Positions 10,895 through 44,941 of a stretch of DNA of 64,000 nt are shown here, piece by piece (within the stretch, counting starts at the first letter, position 1; the number at the start of each line of letters is the position of its first letter). Source of the DNA: Promethearchaeia archaeon (GTDB taxonomy: Archaea > Asgardarchaeota > Lokiarchaeia > Sigyniarchaeales > SOKP01); NCBI GenBank assembly GCA_029856045.1, contig JAHQWG010000035.1, positions 73,213-137,212 of the forward strand, in the 5' to 3' direction. The notes below the pieces were generated by a model that did no database searches, was not told where the DNA came from, and was given only the letters and a program-made list of their open reading frames with translations. Both the position numbers and the translations under genes were made by a program.

Positions 10895-11040
10895 TTTTTC
10901 TTTAGAGGGTCTTTAATTAATCTGGATTGAACTTTTTTTAAATTAGTTAAATATTACTAAAATTGCAATTTATAAAGAAAAAATCTCAATTAAATTACAA
11001 GTATCTCAATTAAAACCATTTATTACTTTTTTTTCTCACT

Positions 11041-11055
11041 TCTTTTATTTAAATA
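11041..11055 (+). promoter_or_regulatory. T-tract + TATA promoter motif
   Basis: TCTTTT-A-TTTAAATA; TATA starts 32 nt before ATG 11080. Confidence 0.55.
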
Positions 11056-11079
11056 GTTTGATTTTATACATCTACTAAT

Positions 11080-11505
11080 ATGGATAAAAGATTATTTGAT
11101 CCAAACGACATAAAAATTTCACGCTCTGGAATATGGAAAATAGAAAGAGACCATGGAATTTTATATTTTGGGGTTAATTTAGACAATAAATCAGATTTTA
11201 ATATTTATAATCTCAAATTTTTCTTACACAAAATTCCCATAAATATGAAATTAGAGCCAAAACAAATTCATAGAATTCCAAATTTGAATCCAAAAACGAA
11301 TATCTCAGTTTATTTCAGGTTAATTCCCGAAAAAGATTATATTTTTGATACTGTAGAAGGATTTATTTCATATTATGATTTACGAGAAAAAATATATATT
11401 AGAGATATAGAGCCGTATAAGATCGAATTTCAAAGAGAATTATATACACCGAATAAAATTTTCATAAGGAATTTGAATCAAAAAGTTAAGTCTTCTTCTA
11501 TTTAA
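11080..11505 (+). CDS. Hypothetical beta-sandwich protein
   Basis: 141-aa ORF with beta-strand pattern (VNLDNKSDFNIYNLKFFL); promoter motif upstream. Confidence 0.6.
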   Translation: MDKRLFDPNDIKISRSGIWKIERDHGILYFGVNLDNKSDFNIYNLKFFLHKIPINMKLEPKQIHRIPNLNPKTNISVYFRLIPEKDYIFDTVEGFISYYDLREKIYIRDIEPYKIEFQRELYTPNKIFIRNLNQKVKSSSI

Positions 11506-11534
11506 GCGTTTTCACTGATATAAAAAAAACTTTG

Positions 11535-11554
11535 GAGTTTTTTTTATTTAAATA
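11535..11554 (+). promoter_or_regulatory. T-tract + TATA promoter motif for membrane operon
   Basis: GAG-T8-A-TTTAAATA; TATA starts 35 nt before ATG 11582. Confidence 0.6.
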
Positions 11555-11572
11555 TACTTATTTGAACATCTA

Positions 11573-13963
11573 TTGGATATTATGGATAATTACTTATATC
11601 AAAGTGATACGACATTAGATACCCCAGATAGAACAGATTATAAATATCATTATAATGAAGCAGAGAAATTGGAGAAAGAAGGAACTCTAGAAAGCCTTGA
11701 GTCCGCTATTGTTCATATTGAGATGGCAATCAATAATTTAAACATGAAAAAAGAAATATTGCCAGAGAAATCATTAGATTCAGAGTTAAAAAAATTCGCT
11801 GAACATCAATTAACGATTAAAACAAATTATCATGAGAAACGAATTAATAAATTGTTAGAAGAGGTAAAAAATGAGGAGAATTCAAAAAACTATAAAAAAT
11901 CGGTAAATATTTATAAGAAAATAAGAGATTCAATGAATTTTTTATATAAATTAGGAGATAAAGGCATAAACATTAATGAAATAAATAAAGTAAAAGAGAA
12001 AATTAGTAAATTAACTAAAAAGATATTAAATGAGAATTTATCAATCTCTTTGAACAGAAAATCAAGTAAAACTGAGCAAAAGCCATATTCAGATGAATTT
12101 AAAGAAATTAATGCAGAATTTGAGGAAATAAATTTTGATACAAATGATCAAATTCCTTTACAGAATCATGATACTGAAGGAGAAATAAAAATACCGATTG
12201 AGGTTGAATCCAAGGTAATGGATCAAGATGAATTAGCTCAATCAGAAATGATATTATTAGAGGATAATGAAGTGGAGGAGGATAACATAGATTTACTTGA
12301 TAGACCTAACAAAATTAATATCTTAGATCAAATTAAAGTGATTTCAAATATCCCTGAAACTAAAGAATATTGCATGGAAAACGAAATTTTGGATAAAAAA
12401 TCAGTCAAATTGTTATTAGCTCAGTTAAGAAAAGCATTAATTGCTAATAATTACCAAATTTTTCCTAATGATGACATTGATTTTCAAGAATTATATAATA
12501 AGATTGATTTTCTTGCAATAAAGATCTTCCATATTAATGAATTTTTAGATATATGCCATATTTTACCACTAAAACTTGCTAAACTATACGGTTTATTACT
12601 TGTCTCAGAAAAAAAGATCGATTATAATAGCAATAATACAAATTTATCTCAGATTGAGCGTAAAAATCTAATACAGCCACTAAAAGAAGACATAAATGAT
12701 GTCGTTCGTACTTTATCAAATGAACTTGGAAATGAAGGCCCGATCGCTAAAAATTTCATTTCGTATATTAATGATGATATATCCTTAGAAAAAAGCAGAA
12801 TAGCAAGTAAAGGCTATTTTTATTGTAGAGGCCGAATGCAATACAATTTTATAGTTCAGCCCATTATCATTTCCCAAAATAAAATTGGATTTTTAGAGAG
12901 GAATATACCATATGCATTCCAACAATCTTCTGATTTATATGTTGTTAATATTAACGATTTAAATGATTTATTAAGCTACTTGGAACAGAAAAAAAGTTCA
13001 ATTGAAAAAATTTGTATCAAAAAGCAGCCACTTAATTTATTTATAGATAATAAAATAAAATTAAGCAATGCTTTAAGGTTAATAAGCATCTTATTAGGAG
13101 TATTTGGGGTTTCTTACTTAATTTCATTGTTTTTAAATGATAAAATTTTTGTCAGTGTGTTTCAAGTATTACAAATTCCTTTTATAATAGGGATAATACT
13201 TCTATTAGGTTTCTTTATATACATATATAAAAAAAACCAAGATGAGATCATTCAAAAATATAATAGACCATTCGGCTTCGACCATCCGGACTTTTCTGGA
13301 CAAAATTTATCTATTGCTTTGAATCAAATTAATCCTCCTGAAAGAGAGCAATTCCTATATGAGATATATAACAAGCGTCCAATTCCTATTGAGTTATTGC
13401 AAAAGATCCAAAATCCTCACATTTTTTCAGAATTTGTTGAATTATTTGAATCAAACATAGTAAATATCACATTAAATAATGAGAATTTAACTAGATTAAA
13501 ACAGTCTTTTAAATATTTTAAACAAAAACATAATTTCTACAAAGCATATTGTATTCTTCGGGCAATTCTTGTGTTGAAATTACGAGATTTTATAAGACAT
13601 CGCTTGAATAAATCAGCCGATGATATCCATAATATCTCTTCCCTGCTAGATATAATATGCGCTGAATGTAATATCCTATTTAACAATAAGTCGGTAGAAG
13701 CGATAAAGAAAATAGAGGGAATTAGAGAACTGAAGGGACTTATAAATCAGAATTTTTTTACTCAAATTGTAAATATAGTATATGATATTATCGAAATAAT
13801 TCAGAAGAATACCAAATTGACTGAAGATCTTAAAGAATTTAATAATTTTCATGAAGAAAATGTTCAGAAATTTGAAGAGAATGCTGTATTTGAAAAAAGC
13901 ATTGGCTATACGGGAGGAGACCCTCCAGAAAATATATTTAAAGATTTCTTAAAGGATGATTAA
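11573..13963 (+). CDS. Large membrane protein: helical N-terminus, acidic linker, possible degenerate PD-(D/E)xK-like domain, 2 TM, helical C-terminus
   Basis: 796-aa ORF with two TM segments near aa 500-555; first gene of an overlapping four-gene operon; true start may be ATG 11582. Confidence 0.65.
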   Translation: MDIMDNYLYQSDTTLDTPDRTDYKYHYNEAEKLEKEGTLESLESAIVHIEMAINNLNMKKEILPEKSLDSELKKFAEHQLTIKTNYHEKRINKLLEEVKNEENSKNYKKSVNIYKKIRDSMNFLYKLGDKGININEINKVKEKISKLTKKILNENLSISLNRKSSKTEQKPYSDEFKEINAEFEEINFDTNDQIPLQNHDTEGEIKIPIEVESKVMDQDELAQSEMILLEDNEVEEDNIDLLDRPNKINILDQIKVISNIPETKEYCMENEILDKKSVKLLLAQLRKALIANNYQIFPNDDIDFQELYNKIDFLAIKIFHINEFLDICHILPLKLAKLYGLLLVSEKKIDYNSNNTNLSQIERKNLIQPLKEDINDVVRTLSNELGNEGPIAKNFISYINDDISLEKSRIASKGYFYCRGRMQYNFIVQPIIISQNKIGFLERNIPYAFQQSSDLYVVNINDLNDLLSYLEQKKSSIEKICIKKQPLNLFIDNKIKLSNALRLISILLGVFGVSYLISLFLNDKIFVSVFQVLQIPFIIGIILLLGFFIYIYKKNQDEIIQKYNRPFGFDHPDFSGQNLSIALNQINPPEREQFLYEIYNKRPIPIELLQKIQNPHIFSEFVELFESNIVNITLNNENLTRLKQSFKYFKQKHNFYKAYCILRAILVLKLRDFIRHRLNKSADDIHNISSLLDIICAECNILFNNKSVEAIKKIEGIRELKGLINQNFFTQIVNIVYDIIEIIQKNTKLTEDLKEFNNFHEENVQKFEENAVFEKSIGYTGGDPPENIFKDFLKDD

Positions 13964-14705
13964 AATGATTGAGAATAGTGAGAAGATTGTAAGATGTTTT
14001 AAAATTTTCTATATCATAGGGATCGGACTGGTTATTGCATCCTTTTTCTCTGAGTGGTATTATTACGCTTATATCATCAATAGAATTACAATGATTTGGG
14101 GATATAACATAATTGCAGGATGGAACTGTATTACTAATAATTCTATAAATTATCCTATATCAATCGAGATTGATCTTATGTTATTTTTACTATATGTATT
14201 TATTTTTTTTTTAGCATTAATATCATTTATTTATATTTCACTTGAGCGTCCACTTTTTAGCAAGAAAAATTTTTATAATAAGGTAAAAACTTTAAATTAC
14301 ATTTTTCCTGTATATCTTGGATTTAACCTTATAATATTGGCATTATTTTTATTTAATTTATTCCAGGCTAATTTCTATTTTCCATTTTTGAAGCTTTATA
14401 TTGTTTCCGAAGATTCTGAAACTCTTTACTGGCTTGGTCCGGGATGTATTTTGCATATGATATCTTTTATTTTTATGTTTCCCTTTTCTGCTATAGTTTT
14501 ACAGATCCCTCGAAAATTTAAATTAAAGGAGAATAAAATTGAAATTAATAAATTAATTGAAGTAAGTTCTAAAAATATAGATTTTGAGAAAATTATAATG
14601 AAAGAGAGGATAAAGAAAGATAAGACATTCAATCAATCTTCTAACGGAAAACTACAAAAAGGAAAATTTAATCTGGATAATATACGCTTGGAGAGTGAAT
14701 CATAA
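13956..14705 (+). CDS. Four-TM membrane protein with basic tail
   Basis: Four hydrophobic segments; overlaps the previous stop, suggesting translational coupling. Confidence 0.7.
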   Translation: MIKMIENSEKIVRCFKIFYIIGIGLVIASFFSEWYYYAYIINRITMIWGYNIIAGWNCITNNSINYPISIEIDLMLFLLYVFIFFLALISFIYISLERPLFSKKNFYNKVKTLNYIFPVYLGFNLIILALFLFNLFQANFYFPFLKLYIVSEDSETLYWLGPGCILHMISFIFMFPFSAIVLQIPRKFKLKENKIEINKLIEVSSKNIDFEKIIMKERIKKDKTFNQSSNGKLQKGKFNLDNIRLESES

Positions 14706-15584
14706 GTGTCAAAATTATTAGAAGCCACTAAATTGTTATTGAATAATCAAAATTACAATGACCTGTATGAATTATATTTGGATTTGATTTATAACGCGGT
14801 CAATGAAATTGGTGTAAAATTAAATATTACAACACTTAAATCCAACGAAAAAATTTATGATTATATGATAATAATCGATAAATTCCTCTTTAATAATATC
14901 AATATTGTATTATTTGGAGAACATATTCAGAAAGTAGTTAATTTTCACACTATATATGATAAAATTAAAAATACTTCAGAAAACCTAAAACTAGATCAGT
15001 ATGATATAAAAGAATTAATTGAAGAATACTATGAACTTAAAGCCCTAGCTGTCCCTAATGTTTTTCAAGATATTGAAAGTTATAAGACAAGTAAATATGC
15101 CAATTTTCAAACACTCAAAGCGTGTAATTTAGTTTTTGGAAAAAAAAATAAGAATTATGATAATACCAACATTGAAGATGCATTGTATGAGATGATCTCC
15201 AATCGTATTCAAAATGATTCTGATAAAATCAGGAGAGATTATGTGAAAGGAAAACTAGCTTTTGATAAAAGTTTCAGAAAATTAGCAACCTTAGATTCAA
15301 TCCAAAAAACAATAGAGTCGTCAAAGAAAAAATTCAGCCAAATAGAGATCAGTGGAACCTTATCTGACAATTTAGAATATAAAATCTATACATTACGGAT
15401 GCCGGGATATCTTATATTATCTTTTGGAATTATTTCAGCGATATTATTAGGTTTTATATTTATGGAGATATTTTCAGTGCCAATACTGGCTGTATCATTA
15501 TATCCTAGTGCTATATTTTCTGGATTAATTTGTTTTATTTGTTTTTATATCTTTATTAAATTCTTTATTAGAGGAAAAAAATGA
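14706..15584 (+). CDS. Helical protein with two C-terminal TM segments
   Basis: GTG directly after the previous TAA; C-terminal hydrophobic hairpin. Confidence 0.7.
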   Translation: MSKLLEATKLLLNNQNYNDLYELYLDLIYNAVNEIGVKLNITTLKSNEKIYDYMIIIDKFLFNNINIVLFGEHIQKVVNFHTIYDKIKNTSENLKLDQYDIKELIEEYYELKALAVPNVFQDIESYKTSKYANFQTLKACNLVFGKKNKNYDNTNIEDALYEMISNRIQNDSDKIRRDYVKGKLAFDKSFRKLATLDSIQKTIESSKKKFSQIEISGTLSDNLEYKIYTLRMPGYLILSFGIISAILLGFIFMEIFSVPILAVSLYPSAIFSGLICFICFYIFIKFFIRGKK

Positions 15585-18500
15585 GTAAAACACCAACAGA
15601 AATCACAACAAGTTTGAGTCCTTCAGAGAAAGAGGATTTAAATAGATTTGGAGCCGTTGCTGACATTAACATTTGGAATGAACGACCTGCATTCAAAGAC
15701 GTGAATAAATTTTGTATTTATTTAAAAAGTGGTTTTATCATTGGTATATTTTTAATATTTACTTTATTGTTATATTATTGTAGTGGGGCGTTGATACCTT
15801 CGTTCTTATTCCCGAGTTTGATAATTTTCTTTTTTGTGTTAATATTTTTCCAAGATATTTTTTATTATTTTCCTAAATTCAGATATTCTGGAATTAAAAG
15901 AATCGAATTATTTAAGAATTGTTCATTTAGGATTAAAGATAAGAATTCTGATACTTTATTTATTTTCAATAGAAAAGAGAATTTAGTTACTGGTATAAAG
16001 TTATTTAAAATAGACATATTACCTGAAACGATTGAAGGTAACGTTTATCGATTCTTAAGTTCTCTCGATCGAACTGGAATTCCTTATGTTTATCAAATAA
16101 TTCAGACTTCAAATATTCAGTTAATAAAGAGATCTTCAGATTTTTCTGATAAAAAAGAAAAAATGAGAGTTAGGAACACTCTACAAAATTCACAGACATC
16201 TTTTAATATTAGTTTATTCTTGGCAACTTCTTATTGTAATATGAATAAAATAATTTCTGTTGCATTGGATGAAATACAAAATTCTTTAAATCGTTATGGT
16301 AAAGGTATCATTTCCTCCTTTATTGCCTGTTTTCCTCATCATCATTTAACAGAACTAAAAGGTTTGGAATTAATAAATGGGTTATATACTTTATTTTTTA
16401 AGACAGAAGTAGAACCAAGAAAAGATAATGAAAAATCATTTAAAAATAGAAATTGGAGATCCACAATAATCAGAATTGTTTATCTATTTATTTTTATTAG
16501 TTTTGAGGCATTCTTATTATTTTCTGTAGGCATTAGTGTTGATTTTAATATATTGGTTAATCTAATTGTTTTGATTGGAATTCTTTTCATCTATTGGAGA
16601 GAAATATTTAGCTCTTTGACAGATAAATTCATCTTTAGGGATTTTCTTAGATTAAATCTTTTTAACGATTATAAATTTTTTATGAGAGCTGGTATTCCGG
16701 ATTCTGTTTTTGTTTGGAATGAAGAATTGAAATTATTGATTGGAATTAAGTTATTTGCAGTTAGAAATATTATGACCCGTGGTTATTGTAATCCCGATAA
16801 GTTTATTAGAGCAATCTCGCCTTTTAAATTGTCATATTCTTATACAACGATCCAGGCTGCTCTTTCTCAATTTGATTTGGAAAAAGATTATATGAAATAC
16901 CTGAAAAGTAAAATCATTTACAGCATGCAGAAATATTATAATAATGAGGAGAAACTTTTAAAATGGCTTTCTATGAGAGCCGGTATTTGGCGATTTATGT
17001 TTCTTATTTCTATAAATTCCTACAAATTTACATCCTATATTTCAACTGAAATTATTGATAATTTAGAGTTGGAATTACAGGAGAGATTTGAAACCATTCA
17101 CCTTGCGTTTCAGGAGACATATAGTGATTATGTGCCATTAGTATTAAGAAATCGACGATTAATTTTAGGAATTAAGGTAATTCTTTTAAAAAACAAGTTT
17201 ATCCGTCGTGGAGGCACATATATACCCTATTCTCTTATTCAAGGTAAAATTTTAAAAGAAGTTAACAAAATAATGAATGAATTAAAGAAGGGAATTAAAA
17301 CTCAAGTGGCTGTGGAGTTTAATACACCCTTAAGCTTAAAAAATGAAATTTTAATTGGTAATACAATAAATACTGAATTTTTTAGGGAGGAAATACCTTT
17401 TGGTTTATTATTTAATCAGATTAATAATTTAATCATTAGTGGTGGAACACACAGGCAAAGAGAAGATATTTGTATGAAAATAATAACGGAATTGGTTAAA
17501 AACAAAATCCCTTCAATAATATTTGATTTTAATGGAAAATATAGTAGGCTTATTGAAATTTTCTCTAAGACACAATTTTATCGTGATTTCTATTATTTTA
17601 AACTGGGTCAAAGTTTTAATATCGAGTTATTGAATTCGGGAATAAAAAATGATCCCAAGAATTTAGAATATTTGGATTATATCTGTGAAGCGATTGGATG
17701 TATAAAAAAATTAAATGACAAAGAAATACAAACGATTAGGGATTTGATATCAAAAGTCCCAATGGATTCTAAATCTATAACTATGGATATGGAAATGGAA
17801 GATAAGTGGAAAAAAAATAAAAATTATAATGAAAAATATATTGCTTCAGTATTTAATGATTATACTCAACAAACTAGAAATACAATCAGTGCAATAGGCA
17901 TTGTGGAGGAAAATATTAATTCAAATGATTTTCTAAAAGATGATAAAACTGTAATTATTGATTTAAGCATTTTAAGCCCCCCGCTTAATATATTTGCAAT
18001 GTTTGTGTTGATTTCGAGAATAATTCATTATACCCAAGAAGGTAAAGATTATATTCCTAAGTTGTTAGTAATGCCTAACGTCGAATATTTTTTCGATAAA
18101 TTTTATCTTGATAAATTTATTAAGCCTTATACAATTGATAGATTCCTTAATCCATTGAAAGAAAAAGGATTTGGATTTATGTTTTTAGTCAATGAAGTAA
18201 ATAAATTACATCCAACATTTTTTGATTATATTCAAAATTTTATGGCTCTAAAAACGGTGCAACCGGCAGATTTAATGGTTTTAAAAAATCTTCTTAACTT
18301 GCAAGAAATTCAAGGTCAAGGATATTATACAAAATCACGAAAAAATACATATCATATAGATTTTTTGAAACAATTAAGGAATAATAATGCCATAGTCTTA
18401 AGAGATGATATTGACCAACCCTTTCCCGTTAAAATCGATATTGATTCTCTTGCAGCGATACCTATTCCAAAATATTTGGAATTAAGCGAATATATGAAAG

Positions 18501-19438: not shown

Positions 19439-19532
19439 ATGATCTAATTTTACTACTACTCATAAACGTCAATTAAGGCTACAGAGTCTAAAAAAAAAGA
19501 GATTAATTGAATTTTTATTTTTAAGATTTTTC

Positions 19533-19847
19533 TTATTCTTTTATTTTTTTACCAAGTTTCATTAAAATTGGAAGCAATTTAATCAATTCCATAGCAGGCG
19601 TAGTTTTTATGAATTTAAAAACACCTGGTTTGGCGATTCTCCATACTGCTGTGCCTTGTGCCATTTGTTCTTCGGTATCCGCTTCTGTTATTGATATGCC
19701 CTAAAAATCAGAGGTGCTGATATACCTAGCAATTGTCTTTGTGCCTTCAACTGGATAGAGTTTCTTGTTAAGGATTGTTTGTGCCATCTCCGATAATTCT
19801 GATGGGTCAAAATCTGTATTTAACTCCCAATACGAAATAAATATCAT
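19533..19847 (-). pseudogene. DUF3303-like small protein interrupted by in-frame TAG at codon 49
   Basis: AGGTGG SD, then MIFISYWELNTDFDP..YPVEGTKTIARYISTSDF*GISITEADTEEQM..FIKTTPAM..KIKE; TAG at 19703-19701. Confidence 0.7.
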
Positions 19848-20128
19848 TCTTTTTTACCACCTTTTGTATTTTAATTGGATTCAATAAAGGTATAGTTTTC
19901 AAAACTATATACCATTTTTTCCTTCTATTTTTGATTATTTATAAATTGCCATTATAAATTATTAATTATTTTAGGAGTATTATCAGTTATGGGATGATCT
20001 AATTACATTTTAAAAAATTGAGATAAAACCATTAAGTATATTATTATAAATACAAGAAAAGAGTAATTATTGAAAAGAAAATTTCATAATAAAAAATCTA
20101 AAAAAAAATTTTATTAAAGTGAGAAGTA

Positions 20129-22011: not shown

Positions 22012-22033
22012 GGAGTCTTTTTTTATTTAAATA
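22012..22033 (+). promoter_or_regulatory. T-tract + TATA promoter motif
   Basis: GGAGTC-T7-A-TTTAAATA, nearly identical to the copy at 11534. Confidence 0.55.
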
Positions 22034-22089
22034 GTTACTTTTGAAACTGATGATAACGCATCCCATAATTAAAAATTGATTTTATAAAA

Positions 22090-22782: not shown

Positions 22783-22910
22783 AATTAAATAATTTAATTT
22801 ATTTTATTATTTGCAAAATTATTGAGCGAAGATATATAAATAAAAAGGACATACATTAGCGTTCTTTAACAAATTTTTTTCTTTAAATATATTTATTTTA
22901 AACAGGAAGT

Positions 22911-23018
22911 ATGGCACAAATAACTTCGATAATATTAATATTAATTGCATCTTTGGGAATTGGATTTATATTTTTCTTCATCAAAAATGTTATATCATTT
23001 TATATAAATTCAAATTAA
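22911..23018 (+). CDS. 35-aa single-TM microprotein
   Basis: MAQITSIILILIASLGIGFIFFFIKNVISFYINSN*; AGGA upstream; T7-C-TTTAAATA with TATA 29 nt before ATG. Confidence 0.55.
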   Translation: MAQITSIILILIASLGIGFIFFFIKNVISFYINSN

Positions 23019-23113
23019 AACTCCTTGAATTTTTGCAGATAGTTTTTTTTCTTTATATAAATCATTTTTATTTTATTTTATTTTTATAGATAAGAGAGAT
23101 CAAATATTTTATT

Positions 23114-28035: not shown

Positions 28036-28059
28036 TTCGATAAAATGTTACATATTGGG

Positions 28060-28077
28060 AATTTAAAAACAAAAAAA
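28060..28077 (-). promoter_or_regulatory. T-tract + TATA promoter motif
   Basis: Minus strand T7-G-TTTTTAAATT; about 32 nt before the FEN1-like ATG. Confidence 0.5.
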
Positions 28078-28189
28078 TAACTTGGATTAGGAAAAATCTT
28101 TTAATTTCTTAGCATTTTAAAAATTTTTGTTTAAATATGCTCATTTTATTTTTTGTCTGATTAATATTAAAAAAAACAGGATATATAAA

Positions 28190-32949: not shown

Positions 32950-33101
32950 TTTATCTTCTTATTTATTGTTTTCTAAATAAAAAATTCCAATTTTTAGAAA
33001 GAATATATACTCCTTATTATTAAAGAAAAATGTTTTCTTTTTTTTTATTTAAATAGATCTATTTTATTTTTCACATAAATTTCCAAAATTATTAAAAAGA
33101 G

Positions 33102-35534: not shown

Positions 35535-35863
35535 AAAAAAATCAGCATTACTATCTTTTAATTCTTTTAAAATTTGATAGGAACTGTATAAAATGAGGAT
35601 ATTTAAAGAAAAAATTAAATTACATTACTAAAAGAATTGTAAAAACTTTTCAAACATAAAAACAAATAAGATCTAAGAATTTGAATACATTTTATTATCA
35701 AAAATTATAATATTTAGACAAATACTATTGAATAATTATAGGTTTTAGATAATATGGTATTAAAATTTAATTAGTAAATTTCTATTTGATTAAAAATTTT
35801 TATTTAAATATGTCTGTTTTACTCTCCTTTAAAATAAATTTAGAAATAATTTTGAAACCATAA

Positions 35864-37040: not shown

Positions 37041-37739
37041 TTATTTTTTAATTATTTTATCTATTAAGTCCTTTATAACATCAGATGATTTTCTCAGACT
37101 TATAAATCCAACTAAATGAAGACTTTTAAAAATTTTATTTTTTACTTGATAATTTACTGTGCTCATTTTAATTCCTATTTTATTACATACGTGTACAAAA
37201 GGGATGGAATTTATTCCCAATGCAATCATTGTTAAAATAAAAATTACTCCCACTATTACATCATCTTTTGTATTTTTTATATAAGGCCAAAATTTTTTAA
37301 AAATCTCTTGAGATTTATTAGTAAAACCTTTGTCAAATCTAAAAATTTCTTTTATTTTGTTTATTTTTTTGATAATAACGGTCTTTCTATCTCTTTTAAA
37401 ATAAGTCGGATAAAAAATCGCTGCTTGCTTTAAAATTTCAGTAAATTCTTTTTTATTTGAATTGATCTTTTCTATAAAATCAGCAATTCTAATATCAAAT
37501 CCTTTTGCTTTAAAAACCATATAAATTATTACTGGGGCTAACTTTTTTGGTGACCTTGATTTAGTTCCTTTTCTCATCTGTTTCCATATCTGTAAAAAAA
37601 TCTGAAAACATTCTTCATATAAGTTTGGATATTTTGCCAAATCCAAAATAATTATCAATTTGTTTAAAATTAATTCAAAACTATCAATTACAGTTTTCTC
37701 ATAGTAAGAATATTGAATAAATTGTTCAGATTTGCTCAT
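37041..37739 (-). CDS. TFB-like protein with cyclin folds only (no Zn ribbon); paralog of 5836-7092
   Basis: Shares KGTK.R.P.KL.PVI, RDRK..I.KKIN, KFWP.IKNTKDDVI.GV and KIGIKMST.NYQVKN with the upstream paralog. Confidence 0.75.
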   Translation of the reverse strand: MSKSEQFIQYSYYEKTVIDSFELILNKLIIILDLAKYPNLYEECFQIFLQIWKQMRKGTKSRSPKKLAPVIIYMVFKAKGFDIRIADFIEKINSNKKEFTEILKQAAIFYPTYFKRDRKTVIIKKINKIKEIFRFDKGFTNKSQEIFKKFWPYIKNTKDDVIVGVIFILTMIALGINSIPFVHVCNKIGIKMSTVNYQVKNKIFKSLHLVGFISLRKSSDVIKDLIDKIIKK

Positions 37740-37760
37740 GAATAGTTTTTAAATTAAAAA

Positions 37761-37775
37761 TATTTAAATAAAAAA
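37761..37775 (-). promoter_or_regulatory. T-tract + TATA promoter motif
   Basis: Minus strand T6-A-TTTAAATA; TATA 29 nt before ATG 37739. Confidence 0.6.
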
Positions 37776-37786
37776 GAGATTTACTT

Positions 37787-38950: not shown

Positions 38951-39072
38951 ATCAAGAAAGTTATAAGACATAAGCTTTTAAAGAAAAAACATCATTTCAT
39001 CTTTTTTTCTTTATATATTTTGATTATTATTTTCTCATAAAAGGTAATTGAACGATCAAATTTTGATGAGTA

Positions 39073-39405
39073 ATGAGTAAAACAAGTGTGTTAAAAATAT
39101 TTGGAGTATTTTCAATAGGTATAATATCATTAGTGGTATTTTTCCAAGATGAAATTATGGTCCATCTTATTGATCCAATCCAAGAAATTTTTAGATATAT
39201 ATTTAATTTAATTCCAGTGATATTATTTTCCGCAGCCGGAATATTTTTAATAAGCGGATTTATAAGTAAAAGGAATAGAGTAAGTTGTCTCATATTCAGT
39301 GCATTATGTTTCTTATTTGGGTTCTGGTTATCTAATCCAAGTGGTTTAGAAGATATTGCAAATATGTTTGCTGGAAGACCAGTAACTCCAAAAGGTTGGC
39401 ATTAA
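39073..39405 (+). CDS. Small three-TM membrane protein
   Basis: Hydrophobic segments; T7-C-TTTATATA at 39002-39017. Confidence 0.65.
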   Translation: MSKTSVLKIFGVFSIGIISLVVFFQDEIMVHLIDPIQEIFRYIFNLIPVILFSAAGIFLISGFISKRNRVSCLIFSALCFLFGFWLSNPSGLEDIANMFAGRPVTPKGWH

Positions 39406-39430
39406 GTAAAAAAATGGGGGTAAATATAAA

Positions 39431-39688
39431 ATGTATAATTTATTTCAATTTCCAGATTTAATTGATATATTTACAAATCAATTACCTGTAAACTTGGCAG
39501 AGTTTTGGCAGTTTTTAACAGCAATTCTTTCATTATTGGGATTAACAGGACTTGTTATTTCAATTGTGTGCCTTTTACTCTCAATTAAAGTAAAATTTAA
39601 AGGATTATTGAGTTTTATGATATTTTCATTGATTTTATGTTTAATTTGCGGCTTCGATACCGGATTGATCTATTTTAAGATTATTTAA
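39431..39688 (+). CDS. Small two-TM membrane protein (pilin-sized)
   Basis: 85 aa helical hairpin with basic loop KVKFK; GGGGT SD. Confidence 0.65.
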   Translation: MYNLFQFPDLIDIFTNQLPVNLAEFWQFLTAILSLLGLTGLVISIVCLLLSIKVKFKGLLSFMIFSLILCLICGFDTGLIYFKII

Positions 39689-39813
39689 ATTAAAAATTTC
39701 TTGCTTTAAATTAATTTAAGAGGAAAATATTAACTATTTTCAATTATTCTAATTTTTTCTTTTAAATATCTTCATTGTATAATTATTTCAAAATTTAAGA
39801 AATTTTGATAATA

Positions 39814-40992
39814 ATGACAGAATTAAAATTAGTGAAAGGCATTCAAGCGAGACATATTAAGATTTTTACAGAGAACGGTATTACTACAGCAGAAGCTCTT
39901 GCTATGTCTGGTTTTAAGAGTATTACTGCAATGGAAGGTATTGGAGAAGCAACTTCTAAAAAACTTATTTGGAATGCCAGAAGTGCTTTGGGAATGAGTA
40001 GTTTTAAAACAATATCAGAGTTCCAAGAAAATCATGAATATATTAGCACAGGTTCTTTAAATTTTAATGCAATTTTAGGAGGTGGTATAGAAACAGGTTT
40101 TATAACAGAAGTTTTTGGTCCATTTAAATCCGGAAAGACCAATTTAGCGCACACTTTGTGTGTTACTACACAATTACCAAAAGGAAAAGGTGGATTAAGT
40201 GGTGCTGTGATTTATATTGATACCGAAAATACATTTTCGAAAGAAAAAATCAAACGAATTACCAAGAGATTTGGTCTTAAACCCGAAAATGTACTCCCGC
40301 ACATTTTTCATGCGAGAATTTATAGTTCCGATCATCAAGCTCAAATGATTTTGGAAGCGGAGAAACTCGTAAAAGAAAAAAATGTTAGAATAATAATTTT
40401 AGATAGTTTAATGGCGCTTCTTCGAGCAGAATACATCGGAATTGGAATGCTTCCACAACGACAAGCTACATTAAATCAAATGATTCATGCTCTTTCCAGA
40501 ATTGCAGAGAGTTATAATATAGCGATCCTTGTAACAAATCAGGTTGCCCAACAAATAAAGGGAATGTTCAGCGGTATTGATGCAATTGGAGGGAATATCG
40601 TCGCTCATGGTTGCCAGATTCGGGTGATGTTTAAGACAAAAGGGTTCGCCGCGAATAGTTCTCTTGAAAGAAAGGCAATTATTGTTGATGCACCTGATTT
40701 ACCTCCTGAGGAATGCCAGTTTTATATAACTCCAGCAGGGATCTCAGATACAGAGAAAATAGATTTTTCAAGTATGGAAGAAAATATAGAACCCAAATTT
40801 ATTATGGCTAATGATGAATTTACCTTAGAAAAAATTAGAGGAATAGGAAAAAACATAATGGAGAAATTGGAACAAATAGGAATTACTACTACTGAGCAAT
40901 TGAAAGATACAAATCCCGAAGATCTTGCTAAAGATTTGCCAGGTATTTCAAGTAAAAAAGTAAAAGAATGGATTGAACAAATTCCTGCTTAG
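39814..40992 (+). CDS. radA: RadA/Rad51-family recombinase with extra C-terminal HhH domain
   Basis: N-terminal HhH, ISTGS..LGGGIETG.ITEVFGPFKSGKT, YIDTENTF, ILDS..LRAEY.G, RQ..L, VTNQV, IGGNIVAH. Confidence 0.9.
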   Translation: MTELKLVKGIQARHIKIFTENGITTAEALAMSGFKSITAMEGIGEATSKKLIWNARSALGMSSFKTISEFQENHEYISTGSLNFNAILGGGIETGFITEVFGPFKSGKTNLAHTLCVTTQLPKGKGGLSGAVIYIDTENTFSKEKIKRITKRFGLKPENVLPHIFHARIYSSDHQAQMILEAEKLVKEKNVRIIILDSLMALLRAEYIGIGMLPQRQATLNQMIHALSRIAESYNIAILVTNQVAQQIKGMFSGIDAIGGNIVAHGCQIRVMFKTKGFAANSSLERKAIIVDAPDLPPEECQFYITPAGISDTEKIDFSSMEENIEPKFIMANDEFTLEKIRGIGKNIMEKLEQIGITTTEQLKDTNPEDLAKDLPGISSKKVKEWIEQIPA

Positions 40993-41120: not shown

Positions 41121-42179
41121 TTATTTTATGGGTTTTTGCCCATATGTTTCATCTAATCCTTTAATTTTTATTTTCCTGGCTTGCATTGATAAAATTATTA
41201 CAATTACAACCACAATACTTACGAATATCATTAAAAAATAACCTTCTAGAGGGATTTCGAAATAAAATGTTGTGTTAAAATAGCCAGTATTATTAAAAGT
41301 GTCATTTGCTGGGTTATTTATATCATAGGCTTGAGTTTCATTAATTCCTTGTCCAATTTTTCTAGATTCATATATTAAATATGCAAAATTGTATCTGGGA
41401 TATGCTGAAGCCAGACCAAATTTAAATAAATAAGACCCACGAAGTGCTGTTCCGAATAAAATGTCAGCAAATTCTAAATTTTCGGGAAGAGAAGTTGTAT
41501 TATCAAATATAAGATAAGGATCTGCCTCAGGATCAATAATAGTTAAATTTACCGTTTGAGTTGCTGGTAATGTATAGGCAATCGGAGAAACTCTTACGAC
41601 AATTATTCGGTAAAATGTATCATTTTCTAAATTAGCCAAAAATTGTAATTCATTATAAACTCCCGAACTGAAACAATGGACGTCATAAGATATTGTATCA
41701 TTAAAAACACTTTCTAATAATTTGTCATATATGCACATATCCCCTTCCTTTACTGCAATATGTAAATTAAGATTATATTCAGTCTCAACTGTTATTTTCA
41801 GTTCATAAGTTCCATTTTTTGCTGTTCCAAATGGCACAGTAAATTTTTTCGTATTTTCAAAATAAAAAGACATTGTCGCATTATAGATTTCAAACTCAAT
41901 ACCGTCGGGATCTATCATATTTAGAGATATATTGCACTCATTAGGCGTTACTAATTCACAATTGATTATATAATAATAGTATTCTCTAAATTCTAAATCA
42001 AATATTCTTGTTGTTTTTGGAAAATTAAATTTATATACTTTATCAATGTAAGTCTTTGGCCACTCATTTGATTCGTTAGCAATCACATTATAAATATTAA
42101 GATTGATTGAATTCATTAAAATTAATGATGCTAGAGAAAAAATCAAATATATAGATTTAATTTTTCTTTTAATACCCAT
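41121..42179 (-). CDS. Secreted, C-terminally anchored surface protein with two repeated beta domains
   Basis: Signal peptide; IDPDG..PFGTAKNGTY and IDPEA..LFGTALRGSY repeats; many N-x-T sequons; C-terminal TM. Confidence 0.7.
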   Translation of the reverse strand: MGIKRKIKSIYLIFSLASLILMNSINLNIYNVIANESNEWPKTYIDKVYKFNFPKTTRIFDLEFREYYYYIINCELVTPNECNISLNMIDPDGIEFEIYNATMSFYFENTKKFTVPFGTAKNGTYELKITVETEYNLNLHIAVKEGDMCIYDKLLESVFNDTISYDVHCFSSGVYNELQFLANLENDTFYRIIVVRVSPIAYTLPATQTVNLTIIDPEADPYLIFDNTTSLPENLEFADILFGTALRGSYLFKFGLASAYPRYNFAYLIYESRKIGQGINETQAYDINNPANDTFNNTGYFNTTFYFEIPLEGYFLMIFVSIVVVIVIILSMQARKIKIKGLDETYGQKPIK

Positions 42180-42495
42180 TCACCTTTAATTCTTTAAACT
42201 CTTTAATTAGATTATTTACTTCCGAACATTGGGTATAATCAATACAAGTAAAACATGGTCTATCAGTCCAAAAATAATTGGTTTTATTTTTCTTAAATAT
42301 AAGCAAGATTGGCACTTTTGTATTTGGACATAATAAAGTAGTATTTTCAATCTTTCCTGCTTTGGGCACAGCATACGAAAAATTACATGTCTCAGATTCA
42401 CATTTTATAAATCTCTTATAAGATTTTGTCTTATAAAGAATTAATTCATCAAATCCGCATTTAGGGCATTCTCCAATAGAAATAATCTTTCTCAT
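42169..42495 (-). CDS. Topoisomerase-I-type C4 zinc-ribbon protein
   Basis: IGECPKCG..KRFIKCE..CNF..CP..PCFTC..C. Confidence 0.7.
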   Translation of the reverse strand: MRKIISIGECPKCGFDELILYKTKSYKRFIKCESETCNFSYAVPKAGKIENTTLLCPNTKVPILLIFKKNKTNYFWTDRPCFTCIDYTQCSEVNNLIKEFKELKVNGY

Positions 42496-42519
42496 AACAA
42501 TGAAATGCTAAATTTAAAA

Positions 42520-42537
42520 TATTTAAATAAAAAAAAA
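42520..42537 (-). promoter_or_regulatory. T-tract + TATA promoter motif
   Basis: Minus strand T9-A-TTTAAATA; TATA 32 nt before ATG 42495. Confidence 0.6.
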
Positions 42538-42554: not shown

Positions 42555-42992
42555 TTAGTGATAATCATTTATTGTTGAAGAATTAGGCAAGGAGGTTGTA
42601 GCAAATTCAATTTTTTCCTGTAGAATATGTTCGAACAAACGTTTTAAAAACTCTGACTGTGGATATTTCAATAATCTATTATATTTTCCAATATTTATCC
42701 AAAAAGCTTGATCTGTTTCATGTTTTTTTATCGAAATTTTTGTAGTTTCATTATTAAATATGTGAATCGTACTCCACTCTGTTTTTTTCTGAGAGAGAAC
42801 AAATAACATCTCGATAATTTCACATATATTAAATTTCACAATTTTACCTTCATTGAGTGATGGTTTTTCCCAAATTCCATTCTCCTTTTTTCTTATACAA
42901 TGAAAATATAGAAATGGCTCATTTTTTTTATTACTTTTAACAATAATTCCTACTTTCTGACCAAAAAAACTCTGATTGTGCTTATCTGTCAT
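42555..42992 (-). CDS. Putative Whirly/PC4-like ssDNA-binding protein
   Basis: Pattern suggests (beta4-alpha)x2: SFFGQKVGIIV, FLYF, W, KIVKFNICEI, STIH, FWINI, final helix. Confidence 0.45.
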   Translation of the reverse strand: MTDKHNQSFFGQKVGIIVKSNKKNEPFLYFHCIRKKENGIWEKPSLNEGKIVKFNICEIIEMLFVLSQKKTEWSTIHIFNNETTKISIKKHETDQAFWINIGKYNRLLKYPQSEFLKRLFEHILQEKIEFATTSLPNSSTINDYH

Positions 42993-43013
42993 TACTTCAC
43001 ATCCAATTTTATT

Positions 43014-43781
43014 TTAAATTATAAATTCAAATCCATTATTTGACAACTTGTATTTAGAAATAAATTCAATTTTATGATATTTTAAGTTAAGAGCTTTTTC
43101 TCGTTTCTCATTTACTTCCAATTTTATCATTATTGAGTCAATCCTATCAAATAATTTATGTAAAAATTTAACGTTTTTATTCAAATTTGGTTTATATGAA
43201 ACTTCATGAATGAAAATTAGATTTACTCTATTAAGTGAAGCAAACATTTGTAGCGGATATATTTGCTCAGTAAAGAATGTATTTATTATCTTGATTTTGT
43301 TGTCAATCTCATTAAATTCCATAAGTTTAAGGCGAAAATTGCTTGAAATTGAATCAAATATTATTAATTTTGTATTTATGGGAATAAAATTTTCTATTGA
43401 GCTTAGCTCATTTATTAAATTCTGTTGTTTAAAATATGATGAAATATTGGTTAAAAAAATATTATTCTTAATATATTCTAACTGTTCTGGAGCATCCTTA
43501 AAGTTATGTTCTAATCTTTTATATGAAAATGGCGAACCAGCATTTATCCATAAAGCAGAATATAAATTTTCCTTATCTGAAATCAGATGTCCGACTAAAA
43601 ATTGTACAAACGTTGATTTACCTGAACCTGATTCACCAGATATTTGAATTATTCTAGAATTATTTCTTAAGAGATTATAGATAAGATTAAAAAATTCATC
43701 ACACAACTCATTTTTATTTGAAATAAAATCATAGAAATTTGTTTTATTATTTTTTATCAGTTTTTTTGCCTCAATTATCAA
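43014..43781 (-). CDS. RadB/Rad51-paralog-like RecA-fold ATPase
   Basis: IIQISGESGSGKST, LWIN..F..KRL, LIIFDSISSNFR, IFIHEV. Confidence 0.8.
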   Translation of the reverse strand: MIIEAKKLIKNNKTNFYDFISNKNELCDEFFNLIYNLLRNNSRIIQISGESGSGKSTFVQFLVGHLISDKENLYSALWINAGSPFSYKRLEHNFKDAPEQLEYIKNNIFLTNISSYFKQQNLINELSSIENFIPINTKLIIFDSISSNFRLKLMEFNEIDNKIKIINTFFTEQIYPLQMFASLNRVNLIFIHEVSYKPNLNKNVKFLHKLFDRIDSIMIKLEVNEKREKALNLKYHKIEFISKYKLSNNGFEFII

Positions 43782-44118
43782 ATAATTTTAAAATTTGATT
43801 TTTTTCTTCTTTCAAATCTTCATCTCTTTCTTTTAAAGAATTCATCACATCTTGTTTTAAAATAAGTTTTACAGGTTGTGATTGATTCTGATTCAATAGA
43901 GACATTAAAAGTACCAATTTCACTAAATCATTGTTTGTCGATTCCCCAATTTCTCCTTTCCCAAAAATTCCCCCACCAGAATTCTTATATTTTCGATATT
44001 TTGGATATAAATAAATTATTAAAATAATTCCAATAATTATTGAGGCTGTTAAGGGATCTTTCTGGAAAAAGATAAAACCCATCAATATCATTACCCCATA
44101 TATTATTAATTTAAACAT
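43771..44118 (-). CDS. Small two-TM protein with soluble tail
   Basis: GAGG SD; overlaps the RadB-like start. Confidence 0.65.
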   Translation of the reverse strand: MFKLIIYGVMILMGFIFFQKDPLTASIIIGIILIIYLYPKYRKYKNSGGGIFGKGEIGESTNNDLVKLVLLMSLLNQNQSQPVKLILKQDVMNSLKERDEDLKEEKNQILKLFDN

Positions 44119-44147
44119 TTTTTCTTACCTCATTTTTCTTCTCTATT

Positions 44148-44900
44148 CTACCATTGAGTGCGTGGTGAGAATTCATTTCCTCTTTTTTTTTTGCGATATT
44201 TAACTTCTATTTTATGTTTAGTATATTTGATTTTTCTCCGGGAGATTATTATGTTGTGATGGATTAAAATTAATCCGAGTCCGAGATATCTCATCATGTA
44301 ATAAAAGAGCATTGATAGAAAAAACAATGTTATTAATGAATCAAATATAATTAGTTCAAAAAAATTCATTAAATAATAGGAGATTGACGAAGCAATAAAA
44401 ATGACAATAATTTGAATTACTGTATATCTCTTGTTAGTGCTTTGAAATGATTTAGCAATCATTCGAATATCGGTATTGCTGGGACTCATCTGTGTAAGAA
44501 TTGAAATTGCGATATAAATTAAGATTAGGGCAATCATATAATTAACTACTGGACTGAATATATAGAAAAGGATAAAGCCAATAATATAGGTTCCAATAAA
44601 TAAAGGTGCAAACGAGACCAAAAGACTCTGAAAAAAATTCGAATTTGCAGTGGCAATTTTTCCAGACAGACCACCTTTTTTATTTCTTATTGGTATAATA
44701 TTTGTTTCAGTTACTTTAGTATGAGTTAAAATACACATAATATAATGACTTACCTCATGAACGATAATCCCAATAAAGAAGCATGTATGAAATAAACGAT
44801 AAAATGTTATACTTTTACTACCTAAATGGGTTGTAACGAATGATAACAATGTGGAGATTACAAGAACTCCAATAAATATTATTAAACAGGTTACAATCAT
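44148..44900 (-). CDS. Membrane zinc metalloprotease (M50/S2P-like)
   Basis: IIVHEVSHY, VSFAPL, PSNTD; multiple TM segments. Confidence 0.8.
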   Translation of the reverse strand: MIVTCLIIFIGVLVISTLLSFVTTHLGSKSITFYRLFHTCFFIGIIVHEVSHYIMCILTHTKVTETNIIPIRNKKGGLSGKIATANSNFFQSLLVSFAPLFIGTYIIGFILFYIFSPVVNYMIALILIYIAISILTQMSPSNTDIRMIAKSFQSTNKRYTVIQIIVIFIASSISYYLMNFFELIIFDSLITLFFLSMLFYYMMRYLGLGLILIHHNIIISRRKIKYTKHKIEVKYRKKKRGNEFSPRTQW

Positions 44901-44924
44901 GAATTGAGATTTTTATAAAATGAT

Positions 44925-44941
44925 TATTTAAAAATAAAAAA
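44925..44941 (-). promoter_or_regulatory. T-tract + TATA promoter motif
   Basis: Minus strand T6-A-TTTTTAAATA; TATA 32 nt before ATG 44900. Confidence 0.55.

Follow-up and report, generated by a model that had tools for sequence, protein, structure and literature searches.

A T-run promoter type confined to one gene block of a Lokiarchaeial genome, with a very divergent TFB as its candidate reader

Introduction

Can a single gene block of an archaeon possess a core promoter type of its own, together with a TFB that reads it? To our knowledge, archaeal and eukaryotic transcription is thought to be devoid of sigma-style promoter switching, and the TFB paralogs known to us use much the same BRE and TATA box as the housekeeping factor or, in the case of TFB3, do not read DNA. 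The question is raised by a Lokiarchaeial locus, analysed here in a window of 64,000 nucleotides (the whole stretch of DNA under study), for which a first-pass annotation had listed about 17 copies of a T-run followed by a TATA box and had proposed a sigma-like alternative promoter class. No published description of a T-run promoter system was found.

The T-run motif and its sites

The motif consists of five to nine T residues, one non-T base (C, A or G), the octamer TTTAWATA and a purine 29 nt past the TATA start. All 17 sites listed at first are present in the sequence; 13 match the strict pattern, TTTTTVTTTAWAWA, and four are variants, at 28067(-), 38982(-), 39761(+) and 44932(-). An additional site at 28130(+), absent from that list, brings the total to 18. 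TTTAWATA, the AT-rich TATA box of the archaeal core promoter, occurs in all of them, and T occupies positions -7 to -2 in 15-17 of the original 17, in agreement with the claim that a T-run stands in place of the purine-rich BRE. TTTTA at +14 to +18 is conserved in the source genus only. Copies of a repeat or mobile element are ruled out as the source of the sites, the flanks of all 18 sharing nothing past ~30 bp. Two other strict matches, at 10056(+) and 56939(-), are located inside coding sequence and look like products of chance.

The predicted T-run promoters are as follows (window coordinates, strand, gene or operon served, distance from TATA start to ATG, PWM score and, where given, conservation in other genomes):

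10947..10984 (-): promoter of the Hel308-like helicase gene 8363-10894; TATA start 10976, 82 nt; PWM 18.5; kept in genomes G042, G023 and G116
11040..11077 (+): promoter of the 141-aa ORF 11080-11505; 32 nt, leaderless by sequence; PWM 25.9
11539..11576 (+): promoter of the four-gene membrane operon 11582-19438; 35 nt; PWM 25.4; layout identical in G042
22018..22055 (+): promoter of the RNR_alpha-domain (Pfam) gene 22090-22482; 64 nt; PWM 25.5
22811..22848 (-): promoter of the 82-aa ORF 22522-22770; 70 nt; PWM 17.7
22874..22911 (+): promoter of an unannotated 35-codon hydrophobic ORF 22911-23018; 29 nt, leaderless by sequence; PWM 27.0; kept in G042
23044..23081 (+): promoter of operon 23114-26113 (124-aa ORF, Hef-like helicase and DUF1922 protein; Pfam, NCBIfam); 62 nt; PWM 19.8
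28038..28075 (-): variant promoter of the FEN1-like gene 26983-28035; 32 nt, leaderless by sequence; PWM 14.6
28122..28159 (+): promoter of operon 28190-30586 (181-aa ORF, Arf-like GTPase and 389-aa ORF); 60 nt; PWM 20.9; new relative to the first list; kept at 55-62 nt in G042, G062, G056 and G116
33040..33077 (+): promoter of the WbuX-like PP-loop gene 33102-34250 (NCBIfam); 54 nt; PWM 24.5
35578..35615 (-): promoter of the GNAT-like gene 34314-35534; 73 nt; PWM 29.7, the best of the genome; kept at 68-73 nt in four other genomes
35795..35832 (+): promoter of the GNAT-like gene 35873-37027; 70 nt; PWM 21.6; kept in G042 and G116
37739..37776 (-): promoter of the short TFB paralog 37041-37739; 29 nt, leaderless by sequence; PWM 23.7
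38953..38990 (-): promoter, variant TTTAAAAG, of ORF 37787-38950 (start re-read to the in-frame ATG at 38950); 32 nt; PWM 18.0
39002..39039 (+): promoter of two small ORFs 39073-39688; 63 nt; PWM 18.7
39753..39790 (+): promoter of the RadA paralog 39814-40992 (C-terminal HhH domain; RadA score above the NCBIfam cut-off); 53 nt; PWM 23.8; kept at 53-82 nt in G042, G062, G056 and G116
42498..42535 (-): promoter of operon 41121-42495 (zinc-ribbon protein and 352-aa ORF); 32 nt, leaderless by sequence; PWM 23.9; kept in G042, G116, G056 and G023
44903..44940 (-): variant promoter of operon 42555-44900 (four genes, one of them for a RadB-like ATPase); 32 nt, leaderless by sequence; PWM 14.7; T-run and TATA at 23-34 nt before the orthologs

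Enrichment and confinement to one block

The motif is far above chance despite the AT-rich DNA. The window holds 15 strict matches against 0.95 expected from dinucleotide shuffles, and a fifth-order Markov model trained on the spacers of the gene block itself also gives an expectation of 0.95. In intergenic DNA, 13 strict matches fall into the 4,317 bp of the block (window 8.3-44.9 kb) and 25 into 475,784 bp elsewhere, a 57-fold enrichment (Poisson 5e-19) at nearly the same AT content (0.797 in the block, 0.789 elsewhere). An unbiased k-mer contrast between the upstream regions of the block and all others returned pieces of the motif only. Genome-wide there are 73 strict matches, 14 of them within 40 kb. 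The motif is found at 18 of the 23 transcription units of the block (PWM 14.6-29.7), the remaining five being devoid of it, and the window flanks, where no unit carries it, all score 5.5 or less.

Outside the block, the pattern does not clearly favour the sense strand (16 matches in sense orientation, 10 in antisense orientation and 33 inside coding sequence). The best outlying matches precede a paralog of u124 and a triple PD-(D/E)XK nuclease gene on contig C43, and these two genes are plausible members of the same regulon; other outlying matches, before the unrelated DUF2284, TIR, DUF447 and CofC genes, are probably due to chance. Among relaxed T-rich sites elsewhere, A at +29 reaches 0.54 as compared to 0.40, so that no more than one or two dozen additional sites are likely. 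As a promoter type, the T-run belongs to one gene block and to at most a few sites outside it. The proposed sigma-like class is partly supported, as a set of promoters with a candidate factor, and falls as a general second class of the genome.

Promoter geometry

All 13 strict intergenic sites are oriented in the sense direction, none in the antisense direction. Nine of them are placed between divergent genes, as had been stated for many copies, and four lie behind a co-directional gene. The distances between TATA and ATG form two clusters, 29-35 and 53-82 nt. The former comprises the eight cases already noted at 29-35 nt, all leaderless by sequence (29, 29, five times 32, and 35), a count that needs the start moved to 38950 in one case and the unannotated 35-codon ORF at 22911 in another. 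At +29, a purine is present in 16 of the 18 sites here and an A in 51 of 61 sites (84%) of other genera (p = 2.7e-11), from which we infer a start-site signature and a predicted TSS. None of the sequencing runs listed as containing this DNA is recorded as RNA.

The 13:0 sense orientation, the fixed distances and the conserved A at +29 support a reading of the T-run sites as promoters, and not as terminators or effects of composition. Archaeal RNA polymerase does terminate at oligo-T tracts, the spacers are 79% AT and four strict sites follow a co-directional gene, all of which would fit oligo-T terminators of the upstream genes or chance products of AT-rich DNA. However, 9 of the 13 strict sites have divergently transcribed genes on either side, the enrichment survives every null model tried, the register to both TATA and ATG is fixed, and the sites are conserved in orthologous spacers. 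Terminators or chance are therefore barely credible as an explanation, and the earlier statement that the copies cannot be upstream terminators is upheld for most sites by divergent placement, conservation and enrichment.

The T-run could also work through DNA structure, with no specific reader: stiff poly(dA:dT) would exclude histones, or bending would favour TBP. Lokiarchaeia possess histones, poly(dA:dT) tracts open promoters in yeast, and the run length is variable (5 to 9). Such an effect nevertheless gives no reason for the 57-fold confinement to one block, and it needs neither a fixed one-base linker and TATA register nor a constant non-template strand; we consider it very improbable.

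The usual promoter of the genome is of another kind. Its A-rich BRE and TATA box, counted as AAAN followed by TATA, have a sense bias of 94 versus 40 outside the block and are absent from the block's spacers. tRNA upstream regions carry GAAAA or AAAAG followed by TTTTTATA; since ARAGORN finds only 17 tRNA genes, they provided examples and no consensus. An EM motif search over the full set of 2,073 upstream regions ended in an AT-rich profile without distinctive features, and the canonical promoter is therefore described from strand-biased k-mers, pattern counts and the tRNA upstream regions. Canonical A-rich sites have no A peak at +29 in the register used, which is not suited to a comparison of start geometry between the two classes.

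A divergent TFB beside the block

Three features are relevant to the factor that may read these promoters:

5836..7092 (-): gene of the divergent TFB (dTFB), 418 aa, with zinc ribbon, two cyclin folds and a C-terminal extension; beside the block
7134..7155 (-): promoter of dTFB itself, TTTAAAAT then AAAACTCCTACCC, without T-run
37041..37739 (-): short dTFB paralog, 232 aa, with both cyclin folds and the recognition helix as in dTFB; no zinc ribbon

By Pfam alone, dTFB and its short paralog both remain unrecognised, and dTFB scores below curated cut-offs (PF00382, 14.1 bits versus 23.6; NCBIfam TFIIB, 21.5 bits versus 384); this failure made profile and fold comparisons necessary. A profile built from 35 dTFB homologs matches TFIIB (1.2e-6), Pyrococcus TFB (1d3u/1ais, 7e-4) and the zinc ribbon 1pft (0.009). 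In the AF2 model, the core (pLDDT ~90) consists of two cyclin-fold repeats and a helix-turn-helix, and Foldseek retrieves TFIIB chains with the model (E 1.7e-7; 1d3u_B with TM 0.72, rmsd 3.7 over 201 columns). The zinc-ribbon cysteines C21, C24, C38 and C41 are invariant in the 35 homologs, and some relatives carry PF08271. By profile and predicted fold, the ORF is a very divergent TFB. The short paralog is 48% identical to dTFB residues ~115-318.

In TFB, the upstream BRE is recognised by the C-terminal helix-turn-helix (PMC4581349). At the BRE-reading helix, dTFB has IKMSTINYQVK, as compared to VTEVTVRNRYK in the genome's four canonical TFBs: the conserved TEVT-V/L-R-x-R is absent, both arginines being replaced in all orthologs examined, and the change is retained across genera. 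Changed in this helix, encoded beside the block and apparently inherited with it, dTFB is the likely reader of the T-run and is treated here as its candidate. The helix is nearly invariant within the family, which therefore offers no real covariation test, and the variant of the sister family comes with a few sites in one genome. Upstream of dTFB, a TATA box and AAACTCCTNCC are common to the orthologs in five other genera; from its sequence, the promoter of dTFB itself is classified as canonical (purine BRE) with a conserved extra element.

Alternatively, T-run and TATA might together form the operator of an ordinary regulator, be it a repressor seated on BRE/TATA or an activator bringing in a canonical TFB, in which case dTFB would have another job or be a co-factor only. 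Factors of this type usually run archaeal regulons, and there is a precedent in Pyrococcus, where TFB-RF1 activates at weak BREs and canonical TFB is recruited to a BRE-less promoter (PMC5937170). The motif moreover exceeds the length of a BRE, with TTTTA at +14 to +18 in the source genus, and the block encodes small zinc-ribbon proteins of unassigned role. Against an operator, the part conserved across genera is exactly the BRE position, the TATA box and the start purine, the +14 to +18 element not being retained outside the genus; Pfam and NCBIfam recognise no DNA-binding regulator in the block besides the TFB paralogs; and the one factor whose BRE-reading helix has changed accompanies the block. 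We regard an operator as unlikely.

Conservation and origin of the block

The block, ~37 kb long, is conserved in Lokiarchaeia as an optional set of genes. It encodes extra paralogs of RadA, FEN1, Hef and Hel308, a RadB-like gene, a membrane operon, small GTPases and others, including a 1285-aa protein that has no match by sequence in PDB, Pfam, NCBIfam or PHROG. The block may serve DNA repair, DNA uptake or exchange between cells. A provirus was considered and rejected (no tRNA, no integrase and no PHROG match among ten unassigned proteins).

Inspection of orthologous upstream regions, a check that the first-pass annotation had suggested, revealed that T-run and TATA are kept in other genera at similar distances, with diverged flanks. 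Of the 101 genomes sampled in the family, 73 contain dTFB, and block genes adjoin it in seven other genomes, from five further genera of the family and one genus of a sister family. Across the 101 family genomes, which as relatives are not independent, dTFB and the RadA of the block are both present in 53, both absent in 18, and found singly in 30 (20 dTFB only, 10 RadA only). Several of these discordant genomes reflect contig breaks beside the factor gene; three ‘dTFB-negative’ block contigs end exactly at the expected position of dTFB. Motif 15-mers number 1031 versus 390 backwards controls in dTFB-positive genomes, and 128 versus 84 in genomes that have neither dTFB nor the RadA of the block. 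Some genomes contain several dTFB copies (six matches in G049, four in G116, three in G062). A TBP specific to the block is ruled out by G023, G050 and G061, which have a single TBP gene despite carrying dTFB and block-type RadA (in G023, the entire block). dTFB appears to be inherited together with the block, as is expected for genes in one block whatever the factor does.

The block might be a present or past mobile element, its promoters and TFB being a private expression system of the element and not a host stress regulon. Its presence in 73 of 101 family genomes looks optional, synteny of its flanks is limited to the genus, dTFB occurs in multiple copies, contigs often break beside dTFB and the repair genes are all extra paralogs. 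On the other hand, the block showed neither an integrase nor a tRNA target nor a viral hallmark (tRNA scan, PHROG on ten proteins, Pfam), and the G+C content of the block is close to that of the neighbouring DNA. A mobile origin, which appears improbable, would alter where the block came from and not the mechanism, and it overlaps with the best explanation.

Proposed mechanism

The best explanation of these observations, and in our judgement a probable one, is a sigma-like switch in which dTFB reads the private T-run promoters of the block. The transcription units of the block would share a private core promoter with a TATA box of the normal kind (TTTAWATA), to which the ordinary TBP binds, and the purine at +29 would be the start of transcription. 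Before the TATA box, the 6-7 bp where the helix-turn-helix of TFB contacts the BRE would present a T-run and one C, A or G in lieu of the A-rich BRE; housekeeping TFBs, with R-x-R in their helix, may read this poorly, and the block would be silent until dTFB (5836-7092) is made. In the dTFB helix, the two arginines have given way to Asn and Gln, and its zinc ribbon would recruit RNA polymerase; that Asn and Gln might favour A:T pairs is a general rule of thumb and not a model of the dTFB complex. The ordinary purine-BRE promoter of the dTFB gene would render the switch accessible from outside, and the block would follow as one unit. The ribbon-less paralog (37041-37739), itself driven by a T-run, may occupy the same promoters without recruiting polymerase and thereby exert negative feedback. 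One of the genome's four canonical TFBs could serve the T-run promoters instead. The proposal in full, a Lokiarchaeial sigma-like switch built from TFB, with Arg-x-Arg of the helix changed to Asn/Gln-x-Gln, a regulon for recombination and probably DNA exchange, and a ribbon-less anti-factor, is advanced tentatively, the chances of all its parts holding together being slightly below even.

Comparison with known systems

If this proposal is true, no TFB paralog before dTFB would have had a promoter code of its own, and the case would come from the archaea most closely related to eukaryotes. Such a factor would indicate that the TFB-BRE contact can be re-coded into a separate promoter class, and the regulon could then be read straight from sequence. 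The block would mark a set of additional genes for recombination, nucleases, helicases and membrane proteins that is conserved and co-regulated in Asgard archaea.

Expanded TFB families of haloarchaea are often compared with sigma factors. The multiple TFBs of Halobacterium and Haloferax (TfbA-G) reportedly have partly distinct regulons, according to Turkarslan et al. in 2011, and we know of no clean separate upstream element assigned to any haloarchaeal TFB paralog. Whereas those TFBs are ordinary and overlap in promoter use, dTFB is far below the family cut-offs and is associated with a discrete promoter type.

The system resembles TFB3 of the Sulfolobales, also a TFB paralog co-inherited with DNA-exchange and repair genes including membrane machinery; the genes of its DNA-damage regulon (Ups pili, Ced DNA import) are induced together (PMC6101594, PMC6101591, PMC6061795). 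TFB3, however, is truncated, has no C-terminal helix-turn-helix, is unable to read DNA by itself and serves TFB1 as a co-activator (PMC6101594), whereas dTFB is of full length, its recognition helix is rebuilt, and another element occupies the BRE position of its presumed promoters. The short paralog is lacking the opposite end, the zinc ribbon. Sulfolobus TFB2 is a full-length cell-cycle paralog with its own promoter subset and a feedback circuit; the promoters of TFB2 are nearly identical in the TATA box, similar in the BRE and different in spacing (bioRxiv 10.64898/2026.09.06.749720). Here, in contrast, the sequence at the BRE position is different, and the dTFB helix is devoid of both arginines.

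In its logic, the arrangement resembles that of ECF-type sigma factors with their own -35 element: (i) an altered DNA-reading helix in a homolog of the housekeeping factor, (ii) an altered upstream element, (iii) a small private regulon and (iv) a possible anti-factor. It differs from bacterial sigma systems in operating with TBP, TFB and archaeal RNA polymerase and in having a predicted regulon that is mostly one contiguous block. The HTH2/BRE pair of TFB is regarded as the homolog of sigma region 4 and the -35 element (PMC4581349), and the T-run, as an element specific to the predicted regulon, is discrete, block-confined and conserved.

Conserved T-run promoters in the block

All 17 sites at which the first-pass annotation had placed a T-tract followed by a TATA box are present in the window. 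Aligned on the TATA box, the listed sites begin with at least six T's and a single base other than T (A or C here), continue with TTTAAATA and, after five variable positions, end in TTTTA. The strict pattern TTTTTVTTTAWAWA has 15 matches in the window versus 0.95 expected from dinucleotide shuffles. Because the annotation had been concerned about AT-richness, the comparison was restricted to intergenic DNA, defined by the gene calls for the host genome, G000 (3,021 genes, 86% coding): 13 strict matches fall in the 4,317 bp of the block (window 8.3-44.9 kb) and 25 in the 475,784 bp of all other spacers. This 57-fold enrichment (Poisson 5e-19) occurs at near-equal AT content (0.797 versus 0.789). 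A fifth-order Markov model built from the block's own spacers also gives an expectation of 0.95, and a k-mer contrast of block versus other upstream regions, made without prior knowledge of the motif, yielded only fragments of the T-run motif.

Every one of the 13 strict intergenic sites of the block is directed at a gene; nine are in divergent spacers, as the annotation had described for many copies; the explanation that the sites are terminators or chance matches is refuted for most of them. Two strict matches fall inside coding sequence, at 10056-10069(+) in the Hel308-like gene and at 56939-56952(-) in a gene outside the block; with no gene to serve, they are probably due to chance.

Between 8.3 and 44.9 kb, 18 of 23 transcription units have weight-matrix scores of 14.6-29.7, whereas every unit in the window's flanks scores at most 5.5. 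Genome-wide there are 73 strict matches, 14 of them in C35:80-120 kb, and outside the block the pattern, with 33 matches in coding sequence, 16 sense and 10 antisense, is mostly noise. The proposed alternative promoter class thus holds as a discrete, gene-directed class in the block, but it is local rather than genome-wide. We are highly confident that the class is real, discrete and conserved.

Elsewhere in the genome, AAAN followed by TTTAWAWA is found 94 times in sense versus 40 times in antisense orientation in co-directional spacers; a pattern count found none in the block's spacers. The strand-biased k-mers of the genome (CAAAATTT, AAAGTTTAA and GTTTAAATA) and the tRNA upstream regions (GAAAA or AAAAG followed by TTTTTATA) bear out the A-rich BRE as the genome's norm.

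A second small cluster is located outside the window at C43:1766-12029 of the same genome. It includes a paralog of the 124-aa ORF that opens the Hef operon, as well as a gene for a 773-aa protein in which three PD-(D/E)XK nuclease domains are recognised; each follows a good T-run promoter, with scores of 22.3 and 16.9.

Gene content of the block

The host genome (3.34 Mb, 55 contigs, about 29% G+C; window at C35:73213-137212) contains dozens of Ras/Arf-type small GTPase genes, and its proteins have their homologs in Lokiarchaeota/Promethearchaeota bins, which identifies the host as an Asgard archaeon of the Loki type. The block is rich in unknown genes and includes a four-gene membrane operon besides the following.

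Genes of the block assigned with Pfam/NCBIfam
Hel308-like helicase
Hef-like helicase operon
FEN1-like nuclease
39814-40992, + strand, RadA with an additional HhH domain at its C-terminus (residues about 338-389), over the NCBIfam cut-off
RadB-like ATPase
ERCC4 fragment
RNR_alpha-domain protein
WbuX-like PP-loop enzyme
Two GNAT-like proteins
Ras/Arf GTPases

Since every repair gene of the block has paralogs elsewhere in the genome, the block represents a spare repair set. A rival account derives the block from a mobile element, which would leave the mechanism unchanged; a tRNA search, Pfam and a PHROG search of ten unknown proteins gave no integrase, tRNA or phage-family matches in the block. 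There are three RadA-type genes in the genome including that of the block, the other two being about 42% identical. The 690 bp that separate the membrane operon from the gene after it (19439-20128) contain neither an ORF call nor a T-run promoter.

Promoter geometry

The distances from TATA start to ATG form two groups, one of 29, 29, 32 (five times) and 35 nt, which matches the nearly leaderless spacing of 29-35 nt reported by the annotation for eight cases, and one of 53-82 nt. Of the 18 block sites, 16 have a purine at +29, counted from the TATA start. The 61 T-run sites from seven genomes in other genera carry A there in 84% and T in 5% of cases (p = 2.7e-11). Judged from these sequences, the purine is the signature of a predicted fixed start site, with which the 29-35 group would be leaderless, with leaders of 0-6 nt.

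For ORF 37787-38971(-), a mere 11 nt separate the TATA start from the longest-ORF start (38971); the in-frame ATG at 38950 is the likelier start, giving the standard leaderless spacing of 32 nt. An unannotated 35-codon ORF (22911-23018, + strand), kept in G042 of the same genus, has its first codon exactly 29 nt from the TATA start of a top T-run promoter and encodes a hydrophobic peptide that probably spans the membrane.

Back-to-back T-run promoter pairs in divergent spacers
38953-39039, TATA starts 28-72 bp apart in this and the next three, T-runs facing each other
22811-22911
10947-11077
28038-28159
35607/35803, fifth pair, 196 bp apart

A divergent TFB as candidate reader

Beside the block, Pfam missed a divergent TFB (dTFB), for which PF00382 gave only 14 bits; a short paralog lies within the block.

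5836-7092, - strand, dTFB
37041-37739, - strand, short paralog

Four canonical TFBs elsewhere in the genome match PF00382 clearly. A profile of 35 dTFB homologs retrieved TFIIB (1.2e-6), Pyrococcus TFB (7e-4) and the TFIIB zinc ribbon (0.009). The AlphaFold model of dTFB (core pLDDT about 90) matched TFIIB chains at E 1.7e-7 and the Pyrococcus woesei TFB core (1D3U) with TM 0.72 and rmsd 3.7. In dTFB, four cysteines are invariant, two cyclin folds are present and the C-terminus is extended by about 100 aa. The paralog shares 48% identity with the dTFB core and has the same recognition-position helix described below, without the zinc ribbon; its start codon follows the TATA start of a T-run promoter by 29 nt.

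The upstream BRE is read in the major groove by the second helix of the C-terminal helix-turn-helix of TFB (PMC4581349). By alignment, this helix is (V/I)TE(V/A)T(V/L)RxR(Y/C)K in the four canonical TFBs and IKMSTINYQVK in dTFB, where both arginines are substituted; the dTFB orthologs keep (K/R/Q)MS(T/S)(I/V)(N/Q/H)xQV. From this changed helix and the association with the promoters, dTFB as reader of the T-run is the best-supported mechanism, and a reasonably likely one. Rival explanations are that the T-run is purely structural, or that an ordinary regulator binds at BRE/TATA. The genome has two TBP genes, both outside the block; G023, G050 and G061 have a single TBP gene together with dTFB and a block-type RadA, and in G023 the whole block is seen beside dTFB.

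The promoter of dTFB itself (7134-7155, - strand) consists of TTTAAAAT directly followed by AAAACTCCTACCC and has no T-run. In five other genera, a purine-rich BRE, the same TATA and AAACTCCTNCC are all kept before the gene. These features are compatible with a cascade whose first step, the production of dTFB, would be carried out by the ordinary machinery and governed by some regulator; the TATA plus AAACTCCTNCC element is a candidate for the operator that controls the master factor.

Conservation among relatives

In seven other genomes, orthologs of block genes (23-70% identity) lie within 40 kb around dTFB. Upstream of orthologs, a T-run separated from TTTAWATA by one linker base (C in 57%) is kept at similar distances, and the flanks differ; TTTTA at +14 to +18 was seen in the host's genus only. 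TATA-to-ATG distances across orthologs are 53, 53, 56, 66 and 82 nt for the RadA paralog, 73, 73, 68, 72 and 68 nt for GNAT-1, and 60, 60, 62, 61 and 55 nt for the 181-aa operon.

Sampling of the family turned up dTFB in 73 of 101 genomes, and that of a sister family in 4 of 14, with weaker matches. In G022, the one sister-family genome examined, the sites read T-run, G/GC and TTT(T)ATAAA, and the dTFB helix is ITASTVYSHIK; the sites are too few for covariation to be claimed.

Within the family, 53 genomes have both dTFB and the block RadA, 20 only dTFB, 10 only RadA and 18 neither; 3 of 5 near-complete genomes without dTFB also lack this RadA. T-run promoters occurred on 5/5 fragments examined from RadA-only genomes. 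Three RadA-only contigs scored dTFB-negative (L075/L076, G111:C16; L077, G043:C59; L079, G091:C125) stop exactly beside the ortholog of ORF 44148-44900, the neighbour of dTFB in other genomes, which makes some of the discordance an artefact of assembly; assemblies tend to break at dTFB, for which a multi-copy state would be a possible cause. The 15-mer TTTTTTVTTTAAATA and its backwards control were counted 1031 and 390 times in dTFB-positive genomes and 128 and 84 times in genomes without dTFB and RadA, hand-summed totals that carry no p-value because the genomes are relatives, not independent samples.

Comparison with known systems

Full-text searches on Asgard/Lokiarchaeal promoters, TFB and BRE yielded no description of a T-run promoter type or a dTFB-like factor. 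The nearest known cases are TFB3 of Sulfolobales, which is without a DNA-binding domain (PMC6101594), and TFB2 of Sulfolobus, whose promoters have a similar BRE and different spacing (bioRxiv 10.64898/2026.09.06.749720).
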